From Amphiscolops sp. MND2022 (taxonomy: Eukaryota): a stretch of DNA of 64,000 bases. The DNA lies in contig OZ076415.1 in assembly GCA_964187785.1 (NCBI GenBank), forward strand, positions 65,348,001-65,412,000, read 5' to 3'. Positions 7,629 through 42,169 of the stretch are shown here, one piece after another. The position numbers and the translations under genes were made by a program. The notes under the pieces were generated by a model. It was not told the origin of the DNA. It did not search any database and was given only the letters and a program-made list of their open reading frames with translations. Numbering within the stretch: the first letter of the stretch is position 1; each line of letters opens with the position of its first letter.

Positions 7629-7642
7629 GTATTGCTGACCAT

Positions 7643-9222
7643 TGTCGCACGCATGGGTAAAATTTGTTTATTAGTTTTAATCTGTCAAGTCCTTGTTTGC
7701 ATTTTACAAGGTACTATCTCGCGACGGTTCTGTTATTGATTTAACAAGTATAAGTCCCAACAAATAAATTTGCAACTTACTAATAAAGGGGGTGCCTTGC
7801 GCTTACGTGCGGACAAAAGAAATTGCGTGAGTCGTGCAAGGCAGTGGTTGTAAATGAGCTTCCTGTTTACTGAAAATGTATGGTGAATAAATATGTTTAA
7901 TTACGAATGAGTTGAGAATATTGAAAGTGGACAATTTCTGGACATAGCCATATCTCTTGCAATTGTTACAAATCTCAGATTAATAAAGATTACAACTTCA
8001 TTTTACAAGAAGAAGTAATATAACTTTTACAATTTATCATTTAAGAAAATGAAACTATTTACAAATAATGAGAATTTCCCTTTTTCTTCGGAAATCTTTT
8101 TCTCAAACAAAATTTACAAATCCGTACTATTTTAAACGGAAGAGTTTTGATTTAGATGTCTCTATTCAGTAGAAAGTTGAATAGCATTAAGACTTTTTCA
8201 TAATATAGCACTTTAAAATTTCAATCATCCCTTTTCTTATGTGAGTTTAAGTAACGTCAACCTTATAGAACTATTTAGTTCTAGTGAAAATAATCAAAGT
8301 TAAAGTTTTGTCAACCGCAGAATTGAAATCAGCGGAAAATAGCTAAATTTGAAGTTTTGTCAACCGCAGAATTGATATCGGCGGAAAATAGTTAAAGTCA
8401 AAGTTTTGTCAACCGCAGAATTGAAATCAGCGGAAAATAGCTAAAGTTGAAGTTTCAGAGAGAGTGAAATCTCTACTGAAAGGTCTAAATAGTCAGACTC
8501 ACCAAACCGGAGACGAAATTGAAGAGAAATTTCTAAGTTAGAAATTTCTTGTAAGGGAAGATTGGTTCTGGAAGTTGAAGTTAAATCAAGGATGAGTGGA
8601 GAAATTTTCTAAGATGCAAGGGTAGGATTAAAAGAGAATCATTGGATCTGAGTTATAAAGCAAGAAGTTTTGTTGAGTTAAATAGGAATCTGAATTGAAA
8701 TGTGAAGGCGAGAAATAGACTTTCTAAGTCTGAAGGGGAAGATAATAGTAAAGGGAGAGGAAAGGGGGTAAAGTAAGAAAGAAGTGCAGGGGTGAGGGGA
8801 GAGAAGTGGAAGAGAAGTGAAGAGAAACGAGAGCTTTTAAGTTTAAGCTCTGTCCGTTTCAATAAGTGTATGAATCTCCTCGCCTGCGTTGGCCGTATAT
8901 ATACAGCCAAGCATTTCTTATCGTGCGCTGCGTAGCAGGCATGGCTTATCTTTCACCAATCATAGTTGGTTTCATATTTCAAATATACGCGGTATAATAT
9001 AGAATTCTTCACTTGTGCAATTCCTTTCTCGTCACAGTACTTCATCATCATTATTACCATCGTTATGGCCGCCGCCTTATGGCCGCCATCTTCATCTACA
9101 ACTTTCTCCCCCATAAACAAACGTTAGTTCTAGTTCATGTTTGTTTCTTTATTTGTTAATTAAATATAAACTGCACTTTAGCACCTAATTATGTTTGTTA
9201 AAGCGTTAGTCATAACGCGACA
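7643..9222 (-). repeat. 3' LTR (1580 bp)
   Basis: Direct repeat of 23951-25530 with three substitutions spotted by eye; TG...CA termini. Confidence 0.97.
8303..8449. repeat. Three tandem 49-bp repeats inside the LTR (also 24611-24757)
   Basis: AAGTTTTGTCAACCGCAGAATTGA... starts at 8303, 8352 and 8401; each unit has a CCGC...GCGG inverted pair. Confidence 0.9.
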
Positions 9223-9234
9223 GCTCACCCCCCC
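9223..9234 (-). promoter_or_regulatory. Polypurine tract
   Basis: Minus strand GGGGGGGTGAGC immediately precedes the 3' LTR. Confidence 0.75.
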
Positions 9235-9259
9235 GGCAGGATGAAAGAAAATAAATGAG

Positions 9260-10197
9260 TTATGGGTCAGACTGAAAGAAGGGGGAGTTATGTAGCGCGA
9301 GTGACTGAGGGGAAGGTTCCTTAAATTTGATTCTAAATATTATAGAGTCATTGTTTAGGAATGCTTCTCTGAAGTTGCAAGTAACTTCGTATGAGGGATG
9401 AAGTCTTCTTTGAGGAGGTTCGGGTGCGTGTAGAGATTGTGAAGGGTATCTTCGTGGTTGTGGGGGTTGATTGGGAAAAGTGTGGACCACTTGTTGCCTT
9501 CGTCCTTCTGATCAAGTATTTCGACTTCTACTGTTTTATCAAAGGGCCATGTTTGTGGGTGAGTGAAGTCGCTATAATGAAGTTCACAGCTAATAGAAGA
9601 GTGGGTCCCACGGAAGATGTTTATCCCGTAAGGGAATATTCTGAAGGAAATTTTGCAGCCTGATAGGTATGTTGGGTAAATAGGGCTCGCGAAGCTGTTT
9701 TTGATGTTGTGAAAGGGATCGTCTGGAGAGGTCCTTGCTTTTCGGTAAAGTGTGGAGAAGGCGGAAACTTGCCAAGTGATAAAATCTTTACCGTTCGCTT
9801 CAATCTGGCTCGCTCTGCTAAGGAGGGAGCTTTGGTGTTTGATTGTCGCTCGCAAATCGAAGATAGTGACTTCCAATTGTTGACGTTTATCTCGTGCCTC
9901 TTCGATTGAGGTACATAGCAGTTTGATTCGGTTTTCTAACTTCTTTTGGGGTTGATTAATGTCCGTTAAAGGGAAGGACTTTCGAAGCGGTGTGCTTTTT
10001 GTTCCCTGGTTATAGGTACTAGTTGATTTCTCCCATTCACTAATCCACATATTTAGTCTTTCCACTCCTTCGAGGTTTGCATGTTCTTCTTGATCGTTTT
10101 CTTCAGGCATAGGTGGCCAGTCGGGGTTAGGGATCGGTAGGTAGGGTTTGTGTTTTGGGATGAAGGGGGTGGCATTTGGGTTTAATTTTTGGCTCAT
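9260..10197 (-). CDS. Accessory protein: PAM2 motif + coiled coil + TRAF-C/MATH domain (one frameshift near 9370-9390)
   Basis: N-terminus QKLNPNATPFIP. TRAF motifs ITWQVSAF, FASPIYPT, IFPYG and TWPF lie in ORF 9355-10197. The last TRAF strand FLNNDSIIFRIKF lies in the overlapping frame 9260-9490. Confidence 0.8.
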
Positions 10198-10775
10198 TGT
10201 GCAGATATGGATCTTAAGGGAACTGTCAGCCGCTGTCCCTTCAGTGCAGGGTTCTCAATAGTGTATTCTTGTCTTTTGTTGTCCCAAAAGACGATTTTCC
10301 AGGTTGAAAACTGTGGGAGTAGAGAATACTTTAGGTTTGCGTTAAACCTAGGTTTTTTAACGTATCTGGCTTTTCTAGTGAAGTATTCCCTTTTATGTTG
10401 CTTATGTAAGGGTGCTTCATCGGCTATCTCGTTGTTCCATTCATGATAGTGTTTTTGTGGTGTGGTTCTTCTGATGTCCTTTCCACCAAATCTAGGAGGA
10501 TGTTGTGTTGACGGGATTGGTGGTATGTCTCCTGTGAATGACAAAGGAAAGGGGAGTTGGTCGGATGGCGTTGGTGTGAAGGTTGGAGTTGGAGATTTTG
10601 AGGGTGATGATGGGACCGTTGAGTCAGGGGGGTCGGGAAGGAAGGTAATTGTTGTAGACGAGTCTGGTGTCAAAAAGTCTGAAGGAGATAGGGGTTCGAT
10701 TTCTAGGTCACTTTCTGGGATAGGATCCAGGGTATCGTCGTCCAGGCTTGGTAGGTCGAATAGTGGTTCTAGATT
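10194..10775 (-). CDS. Accessory protein exon (acidic/Pro-rich N-terminus, basic C-terminus), probably spliced
   Basis: The frame is open from 10775, directly after a TTAGTTTACTTTTAG acceptor-like site, with no ATG. The stop overlaps the next ATG (ATGA at 10197-10194). Confidence 0.6.
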   Translation of the reverse strand, partial: NLEPLFDLPSLDDDTLDPIPESDLEIEPLSPSDFLTPDSSTTITFLPDPPDSTVPSSPSKSPTPTFTPTPSDQLPFPLSFTGDIPPIPSTQHPPRFGGKDIRRTTPQKHYHEWNNEIADEAPLHKQHKREYFTRKARYVKKPRFNANLKYSLLPQFSTWKIVFWDNKRQEYTIENPALKGQRLTVPLRSISAQ

Positions 10776-10821
10776 CTAAAAGTAAACTAATGAATGAATG
10801 AACTTGAAAATGTTTTTGGCT

Positions 10822-12969
10822 TTATATTGGAGCTACGAAGCTCTGTACTGAGGGATAAAGTGATTCTTCCTTATTCTTCAGTGCTTGGAGTTCTACTTCT
10901 TTTCCATTATCTTCAGTTTTCGCGTTTTTATCTTCAACGCTATCCTCGTAAGGGGCCCGCGGGGTGAATACAGAAGTTAAAACTGAAGTAAAGAAAAGAT
11001 TGTACGAAGCACTGAGCAATGTTTTAGTGAAGCTCAGTGTATTACCTGTGAGGTGACGAAGTTCAAAGTATCGGAAGACGAGTACCGTGATATCTATTAC
11101 GAACTTAATGAAAAGAAAGGCGCCAAAATACGCGCCGCAGAGTTCTAGTACGTAAGATATACTTCCAAATGTTTCAAGGAACTGATTTTTGAAGTAATCG
11201 GGTGAGATCATGCCGTCAACATAAAAATCTGTACGGGGTGCATAATACGCGAAAGATTCAGGTCCACTATGGGCCATTGAGGGTGTGATGAGCTCTCGTG
11301 AGAACTTCTGGAGGGCGTTGCGAGACGCTGCGCTGATGAGGATGTTGTCCCAAAATTCTGAGAGTTGTTTAGGCGTATACATTCCCGCGTCTTGTGAACC
11401 AGGGAAGGATCTAGTAATCATTGGTTGTATGTCTTTGGGTCCGAAGATAGCAGGTCGGTCGCGATGTTCGGGTGAAGGAGTGAGGGTAAACCAGGAGTCT
11501 TTGTCTTCCATATCCAATTGAAAGAGGTTCTTAATGCGATCGCTGCAATTTTGGGCGTTCGCGTTAGGATAGGTCTGTCGGGTGATTGGGTCCACGAAGG
11601 CAACCACTCCTTTGTAGAAGATGGGTATGCGGTCGTAGCATCGGTTCATCGTGTGAAGAGGTGAGTGGGATTCCGGACAGTGGTAGAGCCAAGCGAGGCT
11701 GCCATCTGTGTTCAGGAACATTGAGCGATTTCCCGTGAGCATGTATCCGGCGAGGCGAGGATTTTCCATTGATAGCATCAAAATAGTAAGGATTTGAGTT
11801 CTTTCTTGTTCGCATTGTGCTTTGAGGAGCTGGATTTCTGAAGCTTCGAGGAGACGAGTGCTCTCAAAGAAGAGATAATCAAGCTTTGTCCCTTGGTGTA
11901 ACTCGTAATCCATGTTGAGGTAATGAGGTGTATTAGGGTTGGGGTCGCTCGGGCCTCGAAAGAGGTGGAGTCGGCCATTACCAGAACCATCTTCGGGTGA
12001 ATAATATTGTAGTTTAGATGTCTCTCCCATGGAGATGCCGAGTCGTCTGCCGGACGTCATGTCGAAGCCACCAAGTTGGATTGAAACGTACAGGGATTCG
12101 TAGTTGGTCGGGTATACATCGTCTGGTTTGTTGCAATACTTTTGTGGTCTGTTGTAGACTTCGAATAAAAATTTGGTAGTGGAGTCGTTGCCGCTTACAA
12201 TATAGTAGTTAGATCCGTGTTTGATCATGTTCACGATTTCTTTCCTATGTACTGCAAGCACGCAATTATCGGGCTCCGCCCATGTGTAGGCGTATGGGTC
12301 CAGTGACGTCGTTTCGCAACCTAGTTGTTCTAAGGGGCAGGGAAGGACCATCTGAAACGGAGTCAGGACTTTTCCATCTCGAGTTTTTACTGATAATTCA
12401 GCATCTTGGATGTGAGATTCGAATGTTTCTCTTTTGATCCAGCCACCTGTCTTGCATTCATTTCGGGTATCTGGGTCGCGTACACCGTCCCAACTCTTTC
12501 CGTATTTGGCGTTTCTCGTCTGTACTTGTTTCACTCCTTTCTTAAATTTGAGGGGTTGTCCATGGATTATGACTTCTTTGCCTTCACCCATTGCCTTGCA
12601 GGTTTCGGGTGACAGGGAAAGATCGCTGGTGATTCCGTCGTGTAGGATTGACATACTGGAGTGGTCGTGATAACCACAATGCCATTCTTCACTCTGATGT
12701 TTCACACGGCACATAGTGGCGTTGATAGTGCGGCGGAAATGTTTAGTGTATAACGTTACGCTCGCACGACTTACCTCTAAGTTTTCAGGTGCCACATTGC
12801 ATTGTTCAACTTGATTCAATGCGTAGAGTTTATTTTGGGTCATTTCGCCGCAGTCGAAATGAGTTACTCGCAGTTTTTTAGCAACGCTAGCGAGGTTTGG
12901 CGTTGGACGTTGTAATATCACAACGGGCGCGTAATGGGCGCATAAAAAGAGTAAGTAAAATAATTTCAT
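10822..12969 (-). CDS. env: Envelope glycoprotein, chuvirus-G-like (class III fusogen-like)
   Basis: N-terminal signal peptide; Cys pattern HFDCG...C...MCRV......HCGYHDHS; N-glycosylation sequons; C-terminal hydrophobic TM segment; TTTCAG acceptor-like site 2 nt before the ATG. Confidence 0.8.
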   Translation of the reverse strand: MKLFYLLFLCAHYAPVVILQRPTPNLASVAKKLRVTHFDCGEMTQNKLYALNQVEQCNVAPENLEVSRASVTLYTKHFRRTINATMCRVKHQSEEWHCGYHDHSSMSILHDGITSDLSLSPETCKAMGEGKEVIIHGQPLKFKKGVKQVQTRNAKYGKSWDGVRDPDTRNECKTGGWIKRETFESHIQDAELSVKTRDGKVLTPFQMVLPCPLEQLGCETTSLDPYAYTWAEPDNCVLAVHRKEIVNMIKHGSNYYIVSGNDSTTKFLFEVYNRPQKYCNKPDDVYPTNYESLYVSIQLGGFDMTSGRRLGISMGETSKLQYYSPEDGSGNGRLHLFRGPSDPNPNTPHYLNMDYELHQGTKLDYLFFESTRLLEASEIQLLKAQCEQERTQILTILMLSMENPRLAGYMLTGNRSMFLNTDGSLAWLYHCPESHSPLHTMNRCYDRIPIFYKGVVAFVDPITRQTYPNANAQNCSDRIKNLFQLDMEDKDSWFTLTPSPEHRDRPAIFGPKDIQPMITRSFPGSQDAGMYTPKQLSEFWDNILISAASRNALQKFSRELITPSMAHSGPESFAYYAPRTDFYVDGMISPDYFKNQFLETFGSISYVLELCGAYFGAFLFIKFVIDITVLVFRYFELRHLTGNTLSFTKTLLSASYNLFFTSVLTSVFTPRAPYEDSVEDKNAKTEDNGKEVELQALKNKEESLYPSVQSFVAPI

Positions 12970-13037
12970 TTCTGAAATTCTTCAGTCTTTGACAATCAAT
13001 CAGGAAAAATGTTTTTTATAGATATGTGGATCCACGG

Positions 13038-13457
13038 TAAGGCCGTAAAAAGGCAAGCCGTAATATCAAACCGGCAGCTTAGCTGGCACGACACTAAGCG
13101 GAGGTTAAAATTTTATAGTAGTAACCTCACTACTATTGGAAAGTGCCTTATAGAAAGATTGTTTTTTTTTGTTTAAAGTATAGGTTTCGGAGTAAGGCCG
13201 TAAAAAGGCAAGCCGTAATATCAAACCGGCAGCTTAGCTGGTACAACACTAAGCGGAGGTTAAAATTTTATAGTAGTAACCTCACTACTGTTCACACGTA
13301 CCTAAGAGAAGGAGTAGTTTATTTGTCTTTTAGTTTAGTTTAATGTTATGGATCCTGAAATAAGGCCGTAAAAAGGCAAGCCGTAATATCAAACCGGCAG
13401 CTTAGCTGGCACGACACTAAGCGGAGGTTAAAATTTTATAGTAGTAACCTCACTACT
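13038..13457 (-). repeat. Three 97-bp structured direct repeats separated by 58- and 71-nt unique spacers
   Basis: Copies at 13038-13134, 13193-13289 and 13361-13457. They differ only at two positions in copy 2, both in a predicted loop. Confidence 0.95.
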
Positions 13458-13517
13458 ATTCAAAGAGTGCCCGAAGAAAAATAGTAAAAGAAACTAACTT
13501 CAACCATCTGTGAAGGT

Positions 13518-13862
13518 TCAGCTGTAGTTATCACTGATTGATTTTAGACTGGGAGAGTGTTTGTTACGTCTCTGAGCGTCGAGGAAATCGATTAACTTGC
13601 TGAGGAGATGAAGGGTCAGAGGGTGAACGTGATCTAAGTAAGCGATCTCCCTGTAGTCGGTTAGCGCCTTCGCAAGATCTGCTGCTTCTGTCGAGTCTGT
13701 GGCGACAGGGATGAGCCAATGTCCCGTTTGATGTGGTCGGAGGCTGTGGAGTTCAATCTGAAGTGCGGGGGCGCTCTCTTTCCAGGCTATAGAGAGGATC
13801 TCAAGAAGTGTGTTTGTTTCCGGGTGACGCCAGAGGAATTTGAGTTGTATTTTAAACATCAT
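13518..13862 (-). CDS. Small accessory ORF (paralog family), likely ATG at 13862
   Basis: Overlaps the stop of the upstream ORF by 11 nt; shares an S-x-x-x-A-x-L-x3-L-x2-Y pattern with its neighbours. Confidence 0.6.
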   Translation of the reverse strand: MMFKIQLKFLWRHPETNTLLEILSIAWKESAPALQIELHSLRPHQTGHWLIPVATDSTEAADLAKALTDYREIAYLDHVHPLTLHLLSKLIDFLDAQRRNKHSPSLKSISDNYS

Positions 13863-14247
13863 AGGTCTCAACTAGGGTGTGAAGATATTTGATTCTAACC
13901 TCTTCTTCAAAGGGGTTAGTTACTAGGGTGATATCCATAAAATAAACCAAGTCGTCGAAAGCCTTGTCTTTAAGGACGGCGGGGTGTTGGAGTATGTATT
14001 GTTGGAACGATAGGAATAGGTAGGCGTATTCCTTGGACCCGAAGTGAATAGGGAAGAGGACTAGTGCTTCTTTGTCTTCTGGTGTGAGTATACGGACTTG
14101 TATCGCCGAGGTAGTGATCTCGTAAAAGATTGACTGTATTTCGTATTCACCCGTGAGTTGTATGGGTTTCCAAGGAACCGGAGGTTGAAATTGAGTGTGG
14201 AAGTAGTACTTATTTCCTCGAAATACGGCAACTGCGGGAGAGGACAT
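13852..14247 (-). CDS. Small accessory ORF, 131 aa (paralog family)
   Basis: Its ATG overlaps the upstream TAA (TAATG at 14249-14245). Confidence 0.65.
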   Translation of the reverse strand: MSSPAVAVFRGNKYYFHTQFQPPVPWKPIQLTGEYEIQSIFYEITTSAIQVRILTPEDKEALVLFPIHFGSKEYAYLFLSFQQYILQHPAVLKDKAFDDLVYFMDITLVTNPFEEEVRIKYLHTLVETYDV

Positions 14248-14468
14248 TAAAGGACTGACTTGGCTCTTGTGAAGACTTCGGTAGGTGTGTTATTATATAG
14301 TAGACTCTCCAGTAGTGGGTAGATAGGTGATGCTGGCACACACGTGTAGGTTTCACTCTCTTCTTCTGCGATTGCGTAGGCTTGTATGATTATGTTCTGT
14401 GTTGAGGGTTCCTTCTGAATATCAGTTATCTGGGAAAGTCGGTTGTCAATTTTGAATATTATGATCAT
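14247..14468 (-). CDS. Small accessory ORF, 73 aa
   Basis: TGATG overlap at its start and TAATG overlap at its end. Confidence 0.55.
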   Translation of the reverse strand: MIIIFKIDNRLSQITDIQKEPSTQNIIIQAYAIAEEESETYTCVPASPIYPLLESLLYNNTPTEVFTRAKSVL

Positions 14469-14635
14469 CAGTGAGCTGTTATGCCTTGTGGCGTGTGTGC
14501 ATCAAACATAGCAAATCTGAGAATGGAATCATCAGTTATTTCATTGCGTTTTTGGGGGTATTTGTAGAGGAGAGAGGATTACGACTTCATGAGTCGTCGT
14601 AGTAAACTAGACAAATGTCCGGGTAGGATATTATA

Positions 14636-14727
14636 TTTTATATCTGATGACTAAGTTGAATAGTGATACATATATGGTTGACTTCAATCAATAATTATAA
14701 ACACTTTGCATGACTTTAAATAAATCA
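14636..14727. promoter_or_regulatory. Candidate internal bidirectional promoter
   Basis: TATAAAA on minus at 14642-14636, TATAAA on plus at 14696-14701 and Inr-like TCA at 14725-14727; divergent ORFs on both sides. Confidence 0.35.
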
Positions 14728-14742
14728 AATTTGTATTTAGGG

Positions 14743-15405
14743 ATGAGCAACAACAACAACAACAACTATAGCGACTATTACGAAGAATCCTCGACCGATG
14801 AGGAGACTACTGCTCCAGGGTCTGTGTCGGGCACTGCCGCTACCTCTTTGCCGCCACAATCGTCGTCGTCAGCTGGGCCGTCCTCGTCGAGCGGAGCGCG
14901 CACCAGTTCTTCTGCTCCCGCGTCATCAGGTTCTCAGGCAGGGACCTCTGGGGGTGGGTCTTTTGTGGCGTTTGTGGCCCCGAGGACTAGTGGCCCTTTT
15001 CCGCAAGCTCCCTCTACCATCTCGCAGGGTGTTTTGGAGAGCCCGGGGGATCAAAGTTTTATGGGTTTATTTACCCATAGGGATATCGACCGCCTAGAAA
15101 ACTGGGCTTCATTAACTAGTTCCCTTCAGGGTACCCCCGGGTTTTCTGTTTCTGGGCCTCCCGGTCCAAATGCTCTAACTAGTTTCTTGCGGGCTAACTG
15201 GGGGGCCCGTTGGGAGCAGACTCTCCTGTCCTCTCTCGGCGAAATAGTCGTCTTCCAGCTGCGAGCCTACATAAGTGGCTACTCGCAGCTGACTAGTTTT
15301 GAGAGGGGTCAGTGGACCCGCCTCTATTCATTGTGGACAATGGGGGAGCGGGCGGCTCAGCTGCGGCGACTTGCAGAGAAGGGAGGTTTCCTGGAGATTG
15401 AGTAG
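14743..15405 (+). CDS. Antisense accessory gene (Ser/Gly-rich N-terminus, helical C-terminus)
   Basis: Long ORF opposite the element strand in a region with no minus-strand ORF; TATA upstream and AATAAA at 15532-15537. An alternative ATG is at 14710. Confidence 0.65.
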   Translation: MSNNNNNNYSDYYEESSTDEETTAPGSVSGTAATSLPPQSSSSAGPSSSSGARTSSSAPASSGSQAGTSGGGSFVAFVAPRTSGPFPQAPSTISQGVLESPGDQSFMGLFTHRDIDRLENWASLTSSLQGTPGFSVSGPPGPNALTSFLRANWGARWEQTLLSSLGEIVVFQLRAYISGYSQLTSFERGQWTRLYSLWTMGERAAQLRRLAEKGGFLEIE

Positions 15406-15572
15406 GCATTATTGCCTCTCATCTCCAGGAAATACTTTATTTTTCTACGCTTTTGTGTTTGCTGCTTTTCGTAAGTTCCTTCTCGGGGTTGCACAAATTG
15501 TATAGATAAAAAGTCTAATAATAATAATAATAATAAAGATAATATTTTTTTCGAATAAGCGGTAATATCCGG

Positions 15573-15998
15573 CTAGGAGCTAGGCGAGGAGATAGTAGAA
15601 CAGCAGAATAAGTCTTTTTGTGTGTTAGGTAATGAAGGTTGTAGGTCAGGTATCAGGGTAGGCATGTAGGATAGTAGTTCCTCTAGGATAGGGTCATGGT
15701 GGGTGACGGCATAATAGGCTAAGTGTTGATATAAGCGGGCGAAAGTAGGTGATTCTGGGTGTATATGAAGGTTAGATTTTCTAGGCGTAGGTTGTTTATG
15801 TGGGCTAGGATCTGGGTCGTTGGAGTAGAAACAAATTCTAACTATTTTGTTTTTGTAGGTCCAGTAGATTTTAGTAATCGTAACCTGCAGAATTCCTAAG
15901 GACTGGAGTTCTCGCGGGACTTGCCAAGGCAAGTTTAGATAGACTTTATGGCACGGCATAGTAAGGTTATTCTTTGTAACCAATTCTAGTCCTTTCAC
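15573..15998 (-). CDS. Small accessory ORF after pol, 141 aa (paralog family)
   Basis: Overlaps the pol stop by 32 nt; LHIHPESPTFARLYQHLAYY resembles FPIHFGSKEYAYLFLSFQQY of ORF 13852-14247. Confidence 0.6.
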   Translation of the reverse strand: MKGLELVTKNNLTMPCHKVYLNLPWQVPRELQSLGILQVTITKIYWTYKNKIVRICFYSNDPDPSPHKQPTPRKSNLHIHPESPTFARLYQHLAYYAVTHHDPILEELLSYMPTLIPDLQPSLPNTQKDLFCCSTISSPSS

Positions 15999-18900
15999 GA
16001 AGTATGGACTGTCGTGCTGGTTGATTGGGTTGTGCTCGCTGATAACGTGGATTTCTCTCTATTTGGCGGGCAACAGCCTTTCGTAACTCTTGCAAGGGAG
16101 TCGTTGACTTGGTAGACGATGCCGGGGTGTTAGTTGGGGGTGCTGGAGTTGGTTGACGTTGAGTTAACGTCAGGATAGGGGTTGCTGCGTTTTGAGGATG
16201 TGATGTCGAAGGCTGATCGGGAGTCTTGGGAGTTGACAACAACTGATTTTCTGGAGAGATGATACCAGAGTCTGTGCTCTGGGGGGTTTGCGTTCTTTTG
16301 CGGGCAAGTATTTGGTTTTGTTGATTCCGTACTGGCAATATGGAGAGGTCTCCGAGTTTTTGTGGTTCTGAAACATTAAGTTGTTCAATTCTTCCTTTGA
16401 CAAGATTGTTATAAAAATCCGTGTCTCCACGGTGGGGAGTAGTGTATTCTTCGATAAGAGGGGGGAGTGTTTCTTCTTTAGGAAAGTATTCTATTAGATG
16501 GTTCCTATGTACAGTTCGGAGATTCTCGGGGTTTTGATCTTCCATTATTTGGTAAGTTGTATTTGTAATTCGTTTGGTAACCGTAAAGGGTCCTAGTCGC
16601 AGTTGTTGGAGTTTTTGGCTTTTGGAGAGGTCTTTTCGATGGTTCTCTAGCAGAACCTTTTGTCCAATGTTGAGGTGGTTCCCAAGTTTAAATCTGTTCC
16701 TGTAGGCGTGTGATTGAGCTGTTTGTTTTCTGCACTTTTCATATGTGGATGAGTAGACCTTTTTGAAGGCTGTTTCTCGTTCCAATAAGCTTTGTGATAG
16801 TTGTGGTCGTAATAGTCCATTTAGTAGTTCGTTTTTGACTTGGTTTTCGCTATGGCAATGAGGAGGTAATCCTTGACAGAATTGTGATTTGCAGTTCTTG
16901 TTTTTGTTCCTGTAGAGTCCCAGCTTCAGACTCATAGGTATCTGTGGTTTATTGCAAAACACTATCTCGTAGGGGGTCTTTCCAGTCGTGTAGTTGACGC
17001 TTGTGTTGTGGGCGAATGCAAATTTGGCAGCTAGTTGGGCCCAGTTGTTTCCTGATTCGTTTAGGAAGTTTCTCCAGTATCTTGCAATGTGTTGATTTTG
17101 AGTTTCTACTTTGCCATTTGTCCAGGGTGAGTGTGCGGTTCTTGGTCGAAGTGTAATGCCAAACTCTTTAGTCCAATTGACGAATTCAGTGTTCACGAAA
17201 GCTGTTCCTCTATCATGTACGATAGATTGAGGGATGCCATAGTGCATAATCCATTTTTCCATCGCATTGATTGTAGATTGTGCTCCTGTGTCTCTGACTG
17301 GGTATGCCATCAGGTAACGTGAGAAGGCGTCGATGATCAGAAGGCAATGTGAATTTCCACGACTGGGAGGATTGAGTGGTCCTTTGTGATCAATGTGGAT
17401 GGTTCTGAATACTTGAGTTTCGGTTTCGCAGTCTTCCAGTGGGACTTCGTTGTTTCTCCGTTGTTTGGATTTGTTAGATTGGCAGCTAACACAATCTTGT
17501 GTGAGGGCACAGATCCAGTTGTGCATCCCTGGCCAGTAGTAAAATCTCTTAGCATTGAGGAAGGTCTTTTCTGCTCCCATGTGGCCGCCGAGGTCGTTGT
17601 AATGTCCCATACGAAAGCAAGCTAAAAATAGAGAGAGAGGTAGACAGATTCTCAGATTCTCGTCTGTTGGGTCATCAGTTGGCTCGTTATAACAAAGGAG
17701 GTTTCCTTGGCCTTCTATAGATAATCTGTCGAATTCCTGAAAGTAACGCATGAGGCCTTTTGAGTGTTGTAACTCTGGTGATTTTGGTTCGGGTTTGTTT
17801 CCTGTTCTTACCCATTGTCGGACCACGCTGAGTACCGGGTCATTTATTTGTTCTTGTAAGATCGTTGTAACGTTTAGTTCTACTTCTTTGGATAGTTTAT
17901 CAAGTTGTCTGACAAGTTCCTGTGTTGGTGTCTTTTGTTTTTCAGTTGAATTTGTAGGTAGATCGAGGTGTTCTATTGCCTTCGCGTTTTTGGGAAGACT
18001 TGGGTTACGTGCGATGGGATCTTCTGTGTTGAGCTCGTAGTTGGTCTCGTTTATTTCTTGACTCTGATTGTCTGTGAGGGCTTCGTCATCCGTATCACTG
18101 TTGATGGAGCTGTAAGTGTTTTGTGATAAATCCGAAGTGCTATCCCGTGTTCCTGACCTGATTCTTAGTTCTTCGAATTTTCCAAGTTCTCTTCCAGCGT
18201 CGAGGCAACTCTGTGCTGACTCTACTTTCGGCAGGTTAGGTTCTTCGTAGATAGAGTTAACTGTGAAGTTATTCCCATCATTTTGGAGATGAAGTACTTT
18301 CCGTTCTTTTCCCTTCTCGTACAAGATGGGGTAAAAGTCGTTCTTGGATGTCTCTTCATTTTCTTCGTGTTTGATTTTGTAGTGTACTTGGGTTCCATGT
18401 TCGTCGAAAAAGTGTATGTCAGTTGGGATGACTTTGTGACTGAGTTGATGTTTCTTGTGTTCCTCGATGGAGACGTTTCGACTGAGTATGTCAGGGAAGG
18501 CTAGGTTGCTTCCTGGAGTCCAAATTATCTTGAGATTCGGGAATTTAGATATAATTACTTGGTACCTGAAAAAACGGGGTGAAATTTGTCCCTTTCTTCC
18601 CCAGAGATAAAGAATCGGCTTGTGATCGCAGTATAGGTAGATGGGGAAGGGAGATCCGATGATGTAGTGTTCATACGTCTGAAGAGCTGAGACTATGCCA
18701 CATAATTCTCTGTGTAGTGTGGACATCTTTTGTTCTTCCTTTGCGAAAACTCTTGAGTTGAAGGAAATGATCCGTTTCCCTTCTGGGAATTGTTGGATGA
18801 GGATACATCCTGTCCCAACGTTTGACGAGTCGACGTGTATGTGAAAGGGGTATTTTGTCGAGGGTATTGCGAGCACTGTGTCTTCGGTAATTCTTTTCTT

Positions 18901-21477
18901 TATTTCCTGGAAAAGGTCTTCGTGTTCTTGGTTCCAGCAAAAATTTGTATCTTTCTTGGTGAGTTCGTAAAAAGGTCGACTATCGACATGAAGATTCTTG
19001 ATGTAGCAGCTATAGAAGCCCAAAGCTCCTAAGAAGCTTTTCACTTCGGTTTTGGTCTTTGGTGATTTGAGATTGTGTAGGTCTTTTACTCGTTTTGCGA
19101 CAGGTTGTATTCCTTCGGCTGCTATCACGTGTCCCAAAAACTTGACTTTCCTTAAGAAGAAGAGTGTCTTATCTGGTGCTGCCTTGAGTCCGGCTTTCCG
19201 CAGTAAGTTATGGTATTCTTGAATTACCGTGAACATTTCTTGTTTGTTTTTGGCTTGCATCAACGTGTCGTCGATGTATGTAATTGCCTGTTTCCTTTTG
19301 ATGAGGGGTTCGAAGTGGATAGTCATCATTCTGCTAAAGAAGCTTGGTAATCCCTTGAGTCCATAGAATCCCCTGGTGAAGGTGTATTGTTTTCCGCCAA
19401 TGATGAAGCTGGTGAGTTTTTGCGTGGGCTCGTCTAATGGGACTTGGTGAAATGCACAGGAGAGATCACTTACTGAGAAGATGTTTCCATTTATTAGTGT
19501 CATTATGGTTTGGATCGGTTCTAAGGGCCAGGAATAATTTGTTAGATCTGTCACCGAGTTTAGATATCTCGCATCTATGATCAGCTTGACATAGTCATGT
19601 TTTGGTTGTAGTATAATAGGATTCACAAATAAGGATCCCATTTCTTCATCGTCGCCCATTTCTCTGATGATATCAGCGTCTTTGAGTTGTGTGAGTAGCT
19701 TCTCTAGCTTTTCTCGTAGGTGAAGTGGTACTTTGCTGGGTCTCTGTCTCTTTAGAATTGCTCCAGGTTCTAGTTTAATGTTAAATTTTTGTCTGGTTTT
19801 CCCTACGTCAAATTTGTGTTGGGAGTATACATCTCTTGCGTCCATTAGTAAGTCTATTAGGAGAACCAGTTCTTCGTCTGTGAGGTCTGAGTAGCGAAAG
19901 TCGAATTCTTTAATGTATCGCACTGCTTCCTTATTTTGATACTGAAGGTAGTACTCGATCAGTCGTTCGTTGTCTTCTTTTGGCCTGAAGATTTTAAATT
20001 GCTCATCGCAGGGTGGTTGACAGGACTTTGCGTCGCTTGTGAAGTCTGTCTCCAGCTCTCTATGTTTGAGATGAAATTGCTCGGAAAATTGTTGTATCTC
20101 ATCTTCTAGTACGTATTCGGGGTCTCCTCTTGTAGTCATGGCATAGACATCTAGTTCGTTTCTTGTATAAATTCGGAGTTGTATTTCTGAGTATGCAAAT
20201 ACGTCTTGAATGAGTTGAGTGACGTCTTGCCATTGGAAGTCTTCTAGCTCTGAGGCTTCCCGTAGCATGGATATAGTTTTGATGCCGCTCATTTTGGCGT
20301 GTGCTTTTAGAGTTTCGAGAGATTGAACTAGTAATTGTGGGTCAATCTTGTCTTTTGATTTTGCTTTCGTAATCAGAACATATATAAATCGTTTCAGAGT
20401 TTCGTCCCAGTAGGGTATGGTTTCTCCTTTCTGTGGTTTCTGTTTTGCGCATGTATCCTTAAGTGAAGGTATTTTCGTTAGGATTTCTTTTGAGAAGCCT
20501 TTGGCTGGCTTTAGGTCGGCCGGGACGAAGATGATGATAGGGTCTGGTCTGCTGAGTATTGTTTTCGAGTTTCCTCCTTCTATTCTGAGGCAATCGTTCA
20601 TATCTTGTGAAGGAATGGTAGAGTGTAATAGGAAACAGTCGTTGTATTCTTCGTTTTCGTTTAGGATAGCATATGCGAGTTCTGTCGGGTTTCTAATTTG
20701 GTATTTCGGAATTTCTTGGTCTAATACGTCAAGCATTGAGTATCCGATAGTTCCTTTTACTAAGGTGATTGTATGGTTTTTGTTGTTTTCCATGACGATT
20801 GGTAAAGTCTTCTCAAATCGTGTGCAGAGGACATTTATGAAGTTAAGTCCAGTAGAAACTGCCTTCCTGTTCGGTAGGAACGTAGATCCAGGAGGAAATG
20901 AGTTATTAGTGTTTTCTGGTGCGAATTTGTAACATCTTGTCGTCTTTGGTTCGATATACATTGAGTGAGGAATTCTGACTGAGAGAATTTGTGATATATA
21001 GGGGTAACATTTGTTGAGTTGTAGGCTACCATAGCAGAAAGTATTTATAAGTCTTTTGAGTTCTATGCCAGGAAGATCAAAGTGTATTTTGTTAACTTGT
21101 TCTTGGCAGAAATTCATTCCAAGGAGGTTTTGGGTTTTCATCTCTGTTATCCAGACTGTTAATGGGAAGTTATGTTGTCCATCGGAATCGTAGTAGAGTT
21201 TGAGGGTGATGTATCCCATCATAGGGATGATCTGCCCAGAGTAGTTCCGTGTTGTGTTATTGCTTCTACTAAGTTCTAGGTCTTGTTGAAACTGGCAAAG
21301 TTCTCTAAAGGTCCTGTAGTTGATGATTGAAGATGTTGCCCCAGTGTCTAGTAGAAATTCGATTTCTAAGCCACTATCTTTTTGTGAGTCTCCGGCAGCA
21401 AAATAATAAAGATTAAGACTAAATTTTAGAGGGGCACTGCTGCTATTTCTATTTTTCGGAGACCTTAGTAGTTTAAA
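15967..21477 (-). CDS. pol: Pol polyprotein: protease, macrodomain, reverse transcriptase, RNase H, integrase
   Basis: The frame is open upstream of the track ATG (21222) and includes LLDTGA at 21348-21337. It has RT YIDD, RNase H VDSS/DHKP, integrase HHCC (H.....GH...CVSC), the D,D(35)E-type core IHID/HDRG/KVETQN and a GPF motif. Confidence 0.97.
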   Translation of the reverse strand, partial: FKLLRSPKNRNSSSAPLKFSLNLYYFAAGDSQKDSGLEIEFLLDTGATSSIINYRTFRELCQFQQDLELSRSNNTTRNYSGQIIPMMGYITLKLYYDSDGQHNFPLTVWITEMKTQNLLGMNFCQEQVNKIHFDLPGIELKRLINTFCYGSLQLNKCYPYISQILSVRIPHSMYIEPKTTRCYKFAPENTNNSFPPGSTFLPNRKAVSTGLNFINVLCTRFEKTLPIVMENNKNHTITLVKGTIGYSMLDVLDQEIPKYQIRNPTELAYAILNENEEYNDCFLLHSTIPSQDMNDCLRIEGGNSKTILSRPDPIIIFVPADLKPAKGFSKEILTKIPSLKDTCAKQKPQKGETIPYWDETLKRFIYVLITKAKSKDKIDPQLLVQSLETLKAHAKMSGIKTISMLREASELEDFQWQDVTQLIQDVFAYSEIQLRIYTRNELDVYAMTTRGDPEYVLEDEIQQFSEQFHLKHRELETDFTSDAKSCQPPCDEQFKIFRPKEDNERLIEYYLQYQNKEAVRYIKEFDFRYSDLTDEELVLLIDLLMDARDVYSQHKFDVGKTRQKFNIKLEPGAILKRQRPSKVPLHLREKLEKLLTQLKDADIIREMGDDEEMGSLFVNPIILQPKHDYVKLIIDARYLNSVTDLTNYSWPLEPIQTIMTLINGNIFSVSDLSCAFHQVPLDEPTQKLTSFIIGGKQYTFTRGFYGLKGLPSFFSRMMTIHFEPLIKRKQAITYIDDTLMQAKNKQEMFTVIQEYHNLLRKAGLKAAPDKTLFFLRKVKFLGHVIAAEGIQPVAKRVKDLHNLKSPKTKTEVKSFLGALGFYSCYIKNLHVDSRPFYELTKKDTNFCWNQEHEDLFQEIKKRITEDTVLAIPSTKYPFHIHVDSSNVGTGCILIQQFPEGKRIISFNSRVFAKEEQKMSTLHRELCGIVSALQTYEHYIIGSPFPIYLYCDHKPILYLWGRKGQISPRFFRYQVIISKFPNLKIIWTPGSNLAFPDILSRNVSIEEHKKHQLSHKVIPTDIHFFDEHGTQVHYKIKHEENEETSKNDFYPILYEKGKERKVLHLQNDGNNFTVNSIYEEPNLPKVESAQSCLDAGRELGKFEELRIRSGTRDSTSDLSQNTYSSINSDTDDEALTDNQSQEINETNYELNTEDPIARNPSLPKNAKAIEHLDLPTNSTEKQKTPTQELVRQLDKLSKEVELNVTTILQEQINDPVLSVVRQWVRTGNKPEPKSPELQHSKGLMRYFQEFDRLSIEGQGNLLCYNEPTDDPTDENLRICLPLSLFLACFRMGHYNDLGGHMGAEKTFLNAKRFYYWPGMHNWICALTQDCVSCQSNKSKQRRNNEVPLEDCETETQVFRTIHIDHKGPLNPPSRGNSHCLLIIDAFSRYLMAYPVRDTGAQSTINAMEKWIMHYGIPQSIVHDRGTAFVNTEFVNWTKEFGITLRPRTAHSPWTNGKVETQNQHIARYWRNFLNESGNNWAQLAAKFAFAHNTSVNYTTGKTPYEIVFCNKPQIPMSLKLGLYRNKNKNCKSQFCQGLPPHCHSENQVKNELLNGLLRPQLSQSLLERETAFKKVYSSTYEKCRKQTAQSHAYRNRFKLGNHLNIGQKVLLENHRKDLSKSQKLQQLRLGPFTVTKRITNTTYQIMEDQNPENLRTVHRNHLIEYFPKEETLPPLIEEYTTPHRGDTDFYNNLVKGRIEQLNVSEPQKLGDLSILPVRNQQNQILARKRTQTPQSTDSGIISPENQLLSTPKTPDQPSTSHPQNAATPILTLTQRQPTPAPPTNTPASSTKSTTPLQELRKAVARQIERNPRYQRAQPNQPARQSILRERTRIGYKE
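21387..21477 (-). promoter_or_regulatory. -1 ribosomal frameshift signal (UUUAAAC + downstream stem)
   Basis: The slippery heptamer T TTA AAC lies in the gag frame at 21477-21471 and pol is in the -1 frame. A 6-nt spacer is followed by GGTCTCCG pairing with CGGAGACT and GCAGCA pairing with TGCTGC. Confidence 0.8.
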
Positions 21478-22919
21478 GGGCGGAAATCGGCAATAGAGTT
21501 CACCGAGTAGTCGGTTTCTAAGAACTGTACTGTGTTGGATCTTCCTATGTCATTAGTTTTTGGGAATCTTTGCTCGTAAGATTGAGTTGGAGTGTTGGGT
21601 CTTTCGTTTCTGTCTAGTGGTCTTTGAAAAACTGAGTTATTTCTTGGTGGAAGAAGTTGTATGTTGCGATTAAAGGAGCTAGACTGGTCTCTGTTGAAGT
21701 TGAACGGAGATCTTGCTCTTTGGGGTCCGGGGGAAACACTTCTGGAGTTGTTAGAATTGTTTAGGAAGGGTTTTCTCCCTTCTTGTGAAAATCTTTGGTT
21801 ACCAGGATTGACTCTTGTATTCGTAGGTCGGCGTTCTGGGTTGAAATTTTTTCTTTGTGGTCTATCGTATTGATTCCAGGCAGGGTTTGACTGCATAGCT
21901 CCAGCCAGTGCTAGTTGATGTGCCACAGCCATATGTTTTCTGATTTCTGAATCTGGTAATCTTGGTTGAAATCTAGAGCCATGTTCAGGTCCAGTTCTTT
22001 TGTTGTAGTCGTTGGTGAATGTTATTCTTCTTTCTGGGTTAGCTTCGTTTTGAACCTTCTTCACTTCTTCATCTCTCATCTTCTTTCTGCACCAGTTAGG
22101 TGTGTGCCCATTTGTTCGGCAGTAGCCACAGAATCGTGTGGCCATTCTTCGACCTGTAGCATTAGGGTCTACAGTTTTCTCTACTGCGTTGATTGTGTTA
22201 TTCATCTGTTCTTTGATTTGTAGTTTGATTCCCTTCAAGTCGTCTCGCATTTCTTGTATGAGTGGGTCTGAATGTGATTCTCCGCCAGTTAGGGCGGTAG
22301 TTACCGTGTAGGAGAGGTCTTTGTTTATTACAGCTTGGGAGAATTGTTCCCAGGTTGCATTCGGGTGATCCATTAAATATTCGTGTGCCTTTTCTCTTAG
22401 TTTTGGAGGTCTTAGGCCTCTCAGTGAGTAGTCGATGCACCTTTGTCTTCTTTGTCGGTCTTGTGCTGCTCTTTCTGCGTTTCTGTCGTTTTGTGCGACG
22501 CCGGCAAGATCATCTGGCCAGCCTTTCCCCACAACAATTTTGATTCTGTGTAGAAAATTCTTTATCTCTTCTCCATCTCTTCTGGTGACATGTTCTGCTT
22601 CCATTCTGTGTCTGAATTTATTTCGGCCATCTGCGAATCTTGTGATGAACCTTTCTCTGATTTCTTGCCAGGTGTTAGCGTCTGTGATACTTGTCTCGAA
22701 CCACTCCGCTGCTGGTCCTCTTAGTAGTGTAGCAAAGTAGGATTTTCTCCTGAAGTTGTAGTCGTCAAGTGCTGCTCCGTTTGCTGGGGTATCACCATGA
22801 GAGAAACGGAACTTCTTTTCAATTAGCTGTATAAATTGTTCAGGATCTTGATCTGGGTCTGTTCCCGTGAATTGGTCTCTGCCGAGGTCTGGATAAGCCA
22901 AGTAATTTTGCGCAGCCAT
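21465..22919 (-). CDS. gag: Gag (capsid + CCHC zinc knuckle)
   Basis: Ty3-like LRGPAAEWF capsid motif; CGYCRTNGHTPNWC = CX2CX4HX4C. Confidence 0.95.
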   Translation of the reverse strand: MAAQNYLAYPDLGRDQFTGTDPDQDPEQFIQLIEKKFRFSHGDTPANGAALDDYNFRRKSYFATLLRGPAAEWFETSITDANTWQEIRERFITRFADGRNKFRHRMEAEHVTRRDGEEIKNFLHRIKIVVGKGWPDDLAGVAQNDRNAERAAQDRQRRQRCIDYSLRGLRPPKLREKAHEYLMDHPNATWEQFSQAVINKDLSYTVTTALTGGESHSDPLIQEMRDDLKGIKLQIKEQMNNTINAVEKTVDPNATGRRMATRFCGYCRTNGHTPNWCRKKMRDEEVKKVQNEANPERRITFTNDYNKRTGPEHGSRFQPRLPDSEIRKHMAVAHQLALAGAMQSNPAWNQYDRPQRKNFNPERRPTNTRVNPGNQRFSQEGRKPFLNNSNNSRSVSPGPQRARSPFNFNRDQSSSFNRNIQLLPPRNNSVFQRPLDRNERPNTPTQSYEQRFPKTNDIGRSNTVQFLETDYSVNSIADFRPLNY

Positions 22920-23929
22920 TGTGAGCTATTGAGATTATAAAGGATAGAAGATGAAGCAAAGAACAATAAGCCAAAGACTCTATGAGGTATGATACTCTTG
23001 GCTTTTGAGAATAACAGCAAAGAGTTAAAGTAAAAATTGTTTGTACTATGATTCTAATAGTGATAATTATTAGACAGGTCTGACAAATCATAAAATCCTT
23101 AATACGCTGCTAGCAAAAATGAAAATAACACTTCTCGGTCGAAGTTAGGCTCATTTCCTATATTTCGTACTCTGATTCCACAGTTTAGGGGATACTTACA
23201 AATCCCAGTAGTGTTGAGATTATCGTAAAAAGGGTAGTTCGGGGTATACCAATCCTCCGAGTTAACCCAAAGAAAACCTATGAAGAGTACAGTCAGTCCA
23301 CTAGGTCTTTCATCCGCTCGTTGAACCTTTCTTTAACTTTAGGAAAATAACTAGTTCACAGAGGGAGTTACTCTCGTCTTTAGGATTAAGTGCGTGGGGC
23401 CCAGATCACTATCATGCAATCACTTGGGTACTATCACTAGGATACTAGGTTTCCCACTCGGAATGCTACATAGGTTCCAAGATACCCACTGGGCTCACGG
23501 CCTTCAAACAGCCTCCGAGGAGACCTAGGCGGGCTTTTACTTAATTTGTGTCCGTCCGGACTAGAGTGAATTTCCCAACTGTGCCTTTAAATAAAGCGTA
23601 TAGAGTCAGTTTCATTCTTGTTTAGGACTGATGGTAATCTCATAGTATTTTCGTAAAGGTAAATCATTTCTAACAAATGGTTTTGGGGATTGAAAGAAAG
23701 AGAGTAGTGCATAAACTCTTCCCAAAGCTGTTAGGCTGGAGAGATTCTGTTAGAGTATTTACTAGCAGTTTTACGATTTATATAGATTAGAGAAGCCACA
23801 TATTGAGGCAGTAGGAGAAAGAAGAAAATTAGAAGTAATGTTAAGAGAAATAAGTAAGTAACCCTTACTTCTGAGAGTAGGGATTCTAACAGATAGCTCA
23901 TTTACTTCTCTATTACAAGAGAAAAAGTA

Positions 23930-23950: not shown

Positions 23951-25530
23951 TGTCGCACGCATGGGTAAAATTTGTTTATTAGTTTTAATCTGTCAAGTCC
24001 TTGTTTGCATTTTACAAGGTACTATCTCGCGACGGTTCTGTTATTGATTTAACAAGTATAAGTCCCAACAAATAAATTTGCAACTTACTGATAAAGGGGG
24101 TGCCTTGCGCTTACGTGCGGACAAAAGAAATTGCGTGAGTCGTGCAAGGCAGTGGTTGTAAATGAGCTTCCTGTTTACTGAAAATGTATGGTGAATAAAT
24201 ATGTTTAATTACGAATGAGTTGAGAATATTGAAAGTGGACAATTTCTGGACATAGCCATATCTCTTGCAATTGTTACAAATCTCAGATTAATAAATATTA
24301 CAACTTCATTTTACAAGAAGAAGTAATATAACTTTTACAATTTATCATTTAAGAAAATGAAACTATTTACAAATAATGAGAATTTCCCTTTTTCTTCGGA
24401 AATCTTTTTCTCAAACAAAATTTACAAATCCGTACTATTTTAAACGGAAGAGTTTTGATTTAGATGTCTCTATTCAGTAGAAAGTTGAATAGCATTAAGA
24501 CTTTTTCATAATATAGCACTTTAAAATTTCAATCATCCCTTTTCTTATGTGAGTTTAAGTAACGTCAACCTTATAGAACTATTTAGTTCTAGTGAAAATA
24601 ATCAAAGTTAAAGTTTTGTCAACCGCAGAATTGAAATCAGCGGAAAATAGCTAAATTTGAAGTTTTGTCAACCGCAGAATTGATATCGGCGGAAAATAGT
24701 TAAAGTCAAAGTTTTGTCAACCGCAGAATTGAAATCAGCGGAAAATAGCTAAAGTTGAAGTTTCAGAGAGAGTGAAATCTCTACTGAAAGGTCTAAATAG
24801 TCAGACTCACCAAACCGGAGACGAAATTGAAGAGAAATTTCTAAGTTAGAAATTTCTTGTAAGGGAAGATTGGTTCTGGAAGTTGAAGTTAAATCAAGGA
24901 TGAGTGGAGAAATTTTTTAAGATGCAAGGGTAGGATTAAAAGAGAATCATTGGATCTGAGTTATAAAGCAAGAAGTTTTGTTGAGTTAAATAGGAATCTG
25001 AATTGAAATGTGAAGGCGAGAAATAGACTTTCTAAGTCTGAAGGGGAAGATAATAGTAAAGGGAGAGGAAAGGGGGTAAAGTAAGAAAGAAGTGCAGGGG
25101 TGAGGGGAGAGAAGTGGAAGAGAAGTGAAGAGAAACGAGAGCTTTTAAGTTTAAGCTCTGTCCGTTTCAATAAGTGTATGAATCTCCTCGCCTGCGTTGG
25201 CCGTATATATACAGCCAAGCATTTCTTATCGTGCGCTGCGTAGCAGGCATGGCTTATCTTTCACCAATCATAGTTGGTTTCATATTTCAAATATACGCGG
25301 TATAATATAGAATTCTTCACTTGTGCAATTCCTTTCTCGTCACAGTACTTCATCATCATTATTACCATCGTTATGGCCGCCGCCTTATGGCCGCCATCTT
25401 CATCTACAACTTTCTCCCCCATAAACAAACGTTAGTTCTAGTTCATGTTTGTTTCTTTATTTGTTAATTAAATATAAACTGCACTTTAGCACCTAATTAT
25501 GTTTGTTAAAGCGTTAGTCATAACGCGACA
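23951..25530 (-). repeat. 5' LTR (1580 bp)
   Basis: Copy of 7643-9222; candidate TATATATA at about 25205-25212. Confidence 0.97.
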
Positions 25531-41800: not shown

Positions 41801-42169
41801 TTGTTTCCAATCAGTGCATCAGTTTAGTGCATGGTTACTGATGGACGTCATTTTACGGAAGTTCACATCGAGGAAGGTTAAAACTTTTTCAAAAAAATAA
41901 GTTGAACCCCTCGCACTGTGGCAGCTGAACGAACAGATCACTTCATTGATGAACCAACCCAGTGGTTTCTGGACCGCTGCCCAGGCGAGGTGGACAACAT
42001 CACTACTTGGTTTCAGTCACAGATTTCTTCGCAGAGGTGGCCGAACTTGGTGGTTAAATTACGACTTCAAAAACGGTCTTTTCAAATTTTCGAACTGATG
42101 AAAAACTTCAATCAATCAAAACATCGAGATTGTTGATCGTTCTTTTTTCGCTCGAAAATGTCTGATTTT

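Follow-up and report, generated by a model that had tools for sequence, protein, structure and literature searches.

What does a retroelement gain from a gene that joins a PAM2-like motif to a TRAF domain devoid of a RING? The question is raised by an ORF in a 64,000-nt stretch of the 1.07-Gb genome of Amphiscolops sp. MND2022 (OZ076415.1, 65,348,001-65,412,000), referred to here as the window. The original prediction described the ORF as a retroelement gene for PAM2, a coiled coil, and a RING-less TRAF-C domain, carrying one frameshift in this copy. It proposed that the product is either an immune-signaling decoy or an adaptor coupling poly(A)-binding protein (PABP) or stress granules to TRAF partners.

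The ORF begins with an ATG at 10197 on the minus strand, its N-terminus is the one originally given, and it is the final gene of a 17.9-kb Gypsy element with gag, pol, and a gB-type env (Table 1). By self-comparison, the two 1580-bp LTRs differ at only 3 positions (99.8% alike); their termini are TGTCGC...GCGACA, and a 4-bp target-site duplication is found at 7639-7642 and 25531-25534. The LTR pair with TG..CA ends, the target-site duplication, the PBS-like and PPT-like stretches, and the Pfam-defined order gag, PR-RT-RH-IN, env are all those of env-carrying Ty3/Gypsy elements, or errantiviruses in an operational sense. The element is therefore a young env-carrying Ty3/Gypsy, and the predicted retroelement context holds, as gag, pol, env, and paired LTRs enclose the ORF.

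Table 1 Features of the env-carrying Ty3/Gypsy element, in window positions
Feature	Positions	Strand	Evidence
3′ LTR, 1580 bp	7643..9222	-	self-comparison, 3 mismatches to the 5′ LTR
Polypurine-tract-like G-rich stretch immediately ahead of the 3′ LTR	9223..9245	-	sequence
Accessory gene: PAM2, helix, coiled coil, RING-less TRAF-C	9260..10197	-	
TRAF-C/MATH beta-sandwich (~139-293 in sisters); final strand out of frame in the window copy	9320..9783	-	
Long helix with heptad repeat, residues 81-134 (coiled coil, TRAF-N like)	9796..9957	-	AlphaFold2 and sequence
PAM2 core, residues 5-14, in predicted disordered N-terminus	10156..10185	-	
orfP, 193 codons, no in-frame ATG	10194..10775	-	
Predicted splice acceptor, TTTAG directly ahead of orfP	10776..10790	-	conservation in sister lineages
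env, gB-like fusion glycoprotein	10822..12981	-	PF24664, E 4e-33
Two small overlapping ORFs, no known family; sister lineages 77-91% identical	13518..14289	-	
Antisense ORF, 234 codons; sister-lineage relatives 36-57%	14701..15405	+	
Small ORF after pol; sister lineages 55-89%	15573..16058	-	
pol, open: protease, RT, RNase H, integrase (Ty3/Gypsy order)	15967..21549	-	Pfam
gag, open: Retrotrans_gag, CCHC-like knuckle	21465..22925	-	Pfam
5′ LTR, then PBS-like stretch starting TGG	23951..25530	-	

Several other features of the element and its surroundings were recorded. The antisense ORF, between pol and env, has counterparts at the corresponding position in lineages B and C (see below), with the C-terminal end best kept. 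Both LTRs contain 49-bp tandem repeats (8286-8455 and 24594-24763) whose copy number differs among sisters, and a further repeat block lies immediately upstream of env (13037-13471). Beside the 5′ LTR, overlapping plus-strand frames at 25918-26797 had no Pfam match; they may resemble a tyrosine recombinase. A large nested tandem array with units of ~420 bp and ~1.6 kb occupies 34400-50300, and a related, partly inverted stretch lies at 62600-63600. Inverted 300-bp arms (50331-50661 and 62581-62938) enclose a plus-strand ORF cluster (50880-62252) that ends in a 1411-codon frame (58017-62252) and is probably another mobile element.

The predicted anatomy of the accessory protein was recovered consistently by Pfam, AlphaFold2, and Foldseek. 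The window protein matches TRAF-mep_MATH (PF21355) above cut-off at E 8e-7, and an unbroken sister matches both PF21355 and PF22486 above cut-off; no Pfam match to a RING or to a zinc finger of the TRAF2-6 type was obtained with either protein. The closest solved relatives by sequence are TRAF5 and TRAF4. The AlphaFold2 model of the unbroken sister, built on a 92-row alignment (mean pLDDT 75.5), consists of a disordered segment (residues 1-34), two helices (35-60 and 81-134), and a beta-sandwich (139-293). The pLDDT is 84-97 across residues 81-120 and 44-59 across residues 1-34, where no secondary structure is predicted, so that PAM2 sits in a predicted disordered and accessible segment. The second helix has a heptad pattern and forms a predicted coiled coil directly ahead of TRAF-C, as in TRAFs. 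With this model as query, Foldseek returned TRAF4, 5, and 1 (E 3e-11) together with TRAF3 and 2, over a range of 3e-11 to 1e-9 and with 14-22% identity; the top named viral fold matches were iridovirus TRAFs. A MATH fold is thus obtained both by profile and by structure prediction.

The single frameshift was also found. The window copy leaves the frame after about codon 273, near 9377, through a single gap relative to its closest sisters and reaches a stop at 9355, and its final TRAF strand lies in another frame that ends at 9260. The site is not a homopolymer, and two other copies break elsewhere. A search of the same genome with the accessory ORF returned at least 139 matches. Among the 25 closest copies (93-100% identical), 21 are unbroken, 3 are frameshifted at different places (the window copy included), and 1 has no in-frame N-terminus; unbroken sisters encode 310-312 aa, and many older copies contain stops.

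The PAM2 assignment rests on a borderline profile score and a strong pattern of conservation. PF07145 matched residues 2-14 of the window protein with E 0.008 and 16.3 bits in hmmscan, for a cut-off of 20; in a genome-wide PF07145 search with the same cut-off, this motif scored 19.5 bits, or 20.3 with its neighbors, and some sisters reached 20.5-23.6. No PAM2 match was returned by hmmscan at E 0.05 for the one lineage B and one lineage C protein scanned. Of the 25 closest copies, 24 have the motif, and its L, N, P, A, F, and P are invariant in 10/10 aligned N-termini (L104, which holds a stop, was left out), in agreement with the consensus LxxxAxxFxP and its Leu and Phe pocket residues. When the protein was shuffled 200,000 times, L[NS]xxAxxFxP arose in 174 shuffles and fell within the first 10 residues in 7. 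The 10-residue core is 70-100% identical among lineages A, B, and C, compared with 29-59% for the next 56 residues, and its fixed codons show synonymous changes, so that third positions vary and residues stay. The PAM2 core is the best-kept block of the accessory gene. With a MATH fold predicted and the motif kept in sister copies, two findings that would have spoken against the original prediction did not arise. Genome-wide, PF07145 gave 46 matches at E 10 or better, 38 of which are starts of PAM2-TRAF ORFs, as found by checking against the coordinates of 45 of the 139 ORF matches; the best match outside the elements, L103, resembles an eRF3 N-terminus. The motif of one copy, L107, is a single residue off the Hendra virus P motif LNPAAVPFVP, and the window motif fits the same pattern.

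Related elements in the genome fall into lineages whose accessory proteins are increasingly distant from that of the window (lineage A): ~57% identity for B, which has several sub-lineages, 28-35% for C and D, and 21-25% for E and F. The order env-orfP-TRAF is common to lineages B-F, and the place of the accessory gene is constant even where pol identity between lineages is 56%. In the A-B comparison, dN/dS (Nei-Gojobori, with silent sites near saturation) was 0.135-0.183 over the whole ORF and 0.10-0.16 over TRAF-C, values that indicate purifying selection on the accessory gene. All 6 lineages examined in the genome retain a RING-less coiled coil plus TRAF-C regardless of PAM2, which is absent from the TRAF ORFs examined in E and F. 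As these two lineages thrive in the same genome, elements can succeed without PABP binding, and TRAF-C must do something that does not depend on PAM2; purifying selection on TRAF-C likewise argues for some structural or binding role.

Two observations concern the history of the 3′ end. In an A-B comparison at fourfold-degenerate sites (window 9260-10775 and 10822-22925 against L026, L027, L049, and L136-L139), differences amount to 25-36% in gag, env, and one small ORF, 36-50% in pol, and 55-62% in orfP and the TRAF ORF. The 3′ module thus looks older than most of the element core, as if swapped by recombination. Internally deleted derivatives also exist: P0041-type ORFs, a 47-member cluster from another sample, fuse the first ~110 env residues to the second half of TRAF-C, and a deleted high-copy family in the host genome (L047, L048) retains only the last third of TRAF-C.

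The accessory gene may be expressed together with orfP. The spacer between env and orfP is otherwise variable, and its TTTAG is invariant in 8/8 aligned rows (lineages A-E) and is also found in the metagenome contig L155. As orfP has no in-frame ATG in lineages A-D, an upstream exon is likely needed. In 10/11 rows of the PAM2 lineages, the stop of orfP and the start of TRAF share an ATGA, the exception being the decayed copy D, and 7-37 nt separate the orfP stop from the TRAF ATG in 4 rows of E and F. The conserved acceptor and the ATGA overlap suggest a spliced 3′ RNA with stop-start coupling. A calicivirus-like re-initiation signal, UGGGA 87 nt ahead of the stop-start site, was discounted, as an invariant Trp-Asp in orfP dictates this sequence. 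The idea that PAM2 is conserved merely through gene overlap was also rejected, as orfP ends at the TRAF ATG. With a dN/dS of 0.05-0.10, orfP comprises an acidic, Pro-rich front, a basic helix, and a conserved C-terminal region predicted to form a small beta-barrel, for which Foldseek gave weak SH3/KOW/Tudor-like rows (best E 0.16). It had no Pfam match at E 0.1, no PDB match by profile, and no relative among viral contigs; our guess is that it could be a regulatory, nucleic-acid-binding protein.

The gene reaches well beyond the single copy of the window. Among the best 150 of 170 representatives, the pattern was found in 7, always at the N-terminus of TRAF-type ORFs or fragments thereof; six of these belong to lineages B and C (31-35% identity to the window protein in C), and the seventh is P0018, from another sample, which has no close match in the host genome (best 34% over most of its length). 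Contig L155 carries a broken relative of P0018 (85% identical) in the order env (60% to that of the window), TTTAG, orfP (47%), PAM2-TRAF. Judging by this gene order, the PAM2-bearing cassette is present in at least one further sample, with a TRAF-ORF identity of 25-28%. Two other loci, L156 and L157, show 44% identity over 43 residues.

In a tree of 43 TRAF-C rows (LG+G4), the mobile RING-less domains stand apart from canonical TRAFs and from L088, the only canonical-type exon of the host (99.5/99), and a single clade holds the P0018 group together with A, B, and C (99.8/100). Another tree, computed under a mixture model from poorer domain cuts, retains the mobile/canonical split (99/99) and does not resolve the PAM2 clade. 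An unrooted env tree of 10 rows, subject to a long-branch warning, separates PAM2-positive from PAM2-negative lineages (98/96). Sister lineages without PAM2 keep TRAF, and these trees are most simply read as PAM2 having likely been gained once, by a mobile TRAF that already existed. Recent capture from a TRAF of this host was rejected, since L088 groups with canonical TRAFs.

The host itself has a canonical intron-split TRAF, represented by a zf-TRAF match (L126, the one clear zf-TRAF locus in a genome-wide search) and the canonical-type TRAF-C exon L088. A genome search with PF21355 returned at least 150 matches, mostly repeated open frames of 257, 342-349, and 384 codons, and 5 of the 7 TRAF-C places inspected with wide flanks lie in env-linked elements or in a second repeat. 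Apparent host TRAF expansions may thus be element cargo; a planarian TRAF expansion has been reported with no mention of Burro, a TRAF-carrying Gypsy element discussed below, in the accessible part of the report (PMC6109357). The second repeated element (L037-L044, L090-L094, L098-L100) is a long palindrome with inverted arms of several kb, up to 99.6% alike, and a RING-less coiled-coil plus TRAF-C ORF without PAM2 in or near the central spacer. Two ORFs were noted in its arms, one with an HxH motif and a small one that presumably resembles PC4-type single-stranded DNA binders; the four arm ORFs scanned had no Pfam match, and no gag, pol, or env match was obtained. In the TRAF-C tree, the TRAF of the palindrome groups with the other mobile ones, a hint that different kinds of element share modules.

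What might the PAM2 motif bind? The host encodes a PABP-type MLLE domain (L031, E 3e-19) and, as a second possible target, a UBR5-type MLLE (L032) adjoining HECT-like exons. The proposed multimer prediction with the host PABP MLLE gave a weak answer: L031 modeled with the first 40 residues of the sister scored 0.35, compared with 0.02 for the best control, possibly through memory of solved PAM2-MLLE complexes. The runs agreed in at least 77% of contacts, with a partner pLDDT of at least 53, which lends weak support and shows likeness only. The complex-score mark was reached by 51/78 solved and 2/108 mismatched pairs in a calibration that did not use peptides, and by 39/65 solved and 2/126 unrelated pairs from eukaryotes; passes at scores of 0.60 or under comprised 5/78 solved pairs and all 4 passing mismatches of 180. 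PABP is assumed to be far more abundant than UBR5 in this host, as it is in human data (10.64898/2026.01.10.698208). Published work carries more weight than the complex score. According to the accessible text of PMC10132805, MLLE ligands are characterized by Leu and Phe pocket positions, viral PAM2 motifs compete directly with host ligands, and the P motif of Hendra virus binds PABP about as well as that of PAIP1. Affinities of human PAM2 motifs span 1000-fold, from 0.3 to 300 uM, with avidity favoring binders (10.64898/2026.01.10.698208, accessible part), and a consensus match therefore does not set the strength of binding. The MLLE of UBR5 binds PAM2 peptides more weakly than that of PABP; UBR5 nevertheless binds PAM2 proteins and degrades Paip2, and such binding can lead to ubiquitylation (PMC11326040, in the part available). 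On balance, the PAM2 motif probably binds an MLLE domain and, if it does, PABP is probably its main target.

We propose that this is a selected 3′-end accessory gene whose PAM2, coiled-coil, and RING-less TRAF-C product is a predicted trimer that likely binds host PABP through its PAM2 tails, a reading to which we give an even chance of being right. The protein would be made from a spliced 3′ RNA, in which the conserved acceptor is followed by orfP, and would start by stop-start coupling at ATGA. The coiled coil and TRAF-C would trimerize as in TRAFs, and three PAM2 motifs per trimer could bind avidly to PABP arrays on poly(A) tails. The trimer might then displace host PAM2 proteins, namely eRF3, PAIP2, and the deadenylase recruiters Tob, PAN3, and GW182, and the TRAF head, with its remodeled groove, would act as a scaffold or engage a partner outside the canonical set. 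Element RNA would then likely become more stable or better translated, or post-transcriptional host defense would be blunted.

The other half of the original prediction, the immune-signaling decoy, loses ground here, and the PABP-adaptor half fits better. A RING-less protein could poison or compete with host TRAF signaling in cell death or immunity, and the sole use of PAM2 would then be to localize it to stress granules or other PABP-rich bodies, or to hold TRAF partners at these sites. In favor of a decoy, the RING-less architecture is kept in all six lineages regardless of PAM2, and the host does have a canonical TRAF. However, four motifs that line the receptor-peptide groove of canonical TRAFs (LNGDG, LFFV, F-x-x-P, and ASGxPxF) are replaced in the alignment of lineages A-C (E, F, and P0018 keep part of them), and the window protein is unlikely to read canonical receptor motifs. 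The mobile TRAFs also form a clade apart, with the host exon on the canonical side, and share only 14-22% identity with solved TRAFs. Precedents exist in a fish iridovirus TRAF that acts on TRADD and caspase 8 (PMC3352826, accessible part) and in Burro, where TRAF occurs alongside BIR and BCL2-like domains (PMC6431247, accessible part). Overall, we consider a decoy unlikely. Less likely still is a ligase adaptor, in which PAM2 would recruit the HECT ligase UBR5 through its MLLE in place of the lost RING and TRAF-C would select a host restriction factor for ubiquitylation. The architecture does swap a RING for a ligase-binding motif, the host has the UBR5-type MLLE beside HECT-like exons, and UBR5 does bind PAM2 proteins and degrade Paip2 (PMC11326040, in part). 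Against this stand the weaker binding by its MLLE reported in the same source, the far greater abundance of PABP, and the absence of the RING already in PAM2-less sister lineages.

The N-terminal motif could also be kept for another reason, such as another partner or an RNA re-initiation signal, with the likeness to PAM2 coincidental. The borderline Pfam score and the location right behind the conserved stop-start overlap speak for this; variable third codon positions beneath constant residues, and fixed residues that include exactly the Leu and Phe pocket positions of MLLE ligands, speak against it, and we regard coincidence as improbable. Finally, the element might draw no benefit from the gene, which would then be inert cargo or a captured host gene in decay. 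Beside the window copy, 3 more of the close copies are indeed broken, as are many older ones by stops, but 21 of the 25 close copies are unbroken, the A-B dN/dS is low, and the position of the gene is constant across lineages with divergent pol. The selection signal largely refutes this reading, to which we give next to no credence.

The PABP-binding accessory protein can be placed in a broader, more tentative picture. It is possible, although we lean against it, that a complex-retrovirus-like Gypsy clade built a trivalent PABP trap by placing PAM2 on a captured TRAF trimer. Made from a spliced, stop-start-coupled 3′ RNA along with orfP as a regulatory partner, the trap would link control of the poly(A) tail to whatever TRAF binds and so counter RNA silencing and deadenylation. 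If so, this would be the first retroelement-encoded PABP antagonist or adaptor, and retroelements would have converged with RNA viruses on PABP hijacking and would have turned a TRAF trimer into a multivalent scaffold. Accessory proteins aimed at host pathways are known from few invertebrate LTR retroelements. Here, a 10-residue motif names the likely target, which makes the hypothesis testable with a peptide and a small domain, and sister lineages with and without the motif in one genome provide a natural comparison.

The claim that no such fusion is known in a retroelement holds in part. Neither a PAM2-TRAF or PAM2-MATH fusion nor PAM2 in an LTR retroelement was found in a literature search of mostly open papers. 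TRAF/MATH cargo in env-bearing Gypsy elements, however, is already published: the accessible text of PMC6431247 describes MATH_TRAF_C in the planarian elements Burro/GYPSM1, with a separate accessory ORF in Dugesia tigrina. Burro resembles the present element as an env-bearing Gypsy LTR element with this domain. It is ~30 kb long and has env inside a single gag-env-pol polyprotein, whereas the present element is 17.9 kb with a separate env after pol; its accessory TRAF ORF is upstream, whereas the TRAF gene is the last ORF here (PMC6431247). Burro also has BIR, BCL2-like, ankyrin, and ubiquitin-like domains, and PAM2 is not mentioned for it in the accessible text; no BIR, BCL2, or ankyrin domain was found among 10 ORFs scanned in the window element. 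The accessory protein is therefore TRAF-derived yet not a canonical TRAF, and its element is not Burro.

Extra genes between env and the 3′ LTR are a layout that complex retroviruses share, and TRAF1 and other RING-less host TRAFs have a coiled coil and TRAF-C with a canonical peptide groove and no PAM2. HSV/gB-type errantiviruses share the gag-pol-env order, the gB-like env, and many near-identical young copies; in the window family, env is followed by two additional genes before the 3′ LTR, and the main text of that report, the part available, contains neither "TRAF" nor "accessory" (PMC13524379). The megalocytivirus TRAF ISKNV ORF111L is likewise a virus-encoded coiled coil plus TRAF-C. It retains a RING, its identity to vertebrate TRAFs is 32-33%, and it binds TRADD, in contrast to the RING-less element protein with its PAM2 and remodeled groove (PMC3352826, accessible part). 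Viral PAM2 mimics (Hendra/Nipah P/V/C, HCoV-229E N, and Berne virus N) have the same LxxxAxxFxP and are measured PABP binders that compete with host ligands, and the motif of Berne virus N is also N-terminal; their carriers, however, are nucleocapsid or polymerase-cofactor proteins of RNA viruses, with neither a TRAF scaffold nor a retroelement involved (PMC10132805, accessible part). TRAF cargo in Gypsy elements and viral PAM2 mimics are thus both already known, and only the PAM2 fusion is new; by analogy, the accessory protein may act as the viral mimics do, with TRAF as the scaffold that carries its PAM2.
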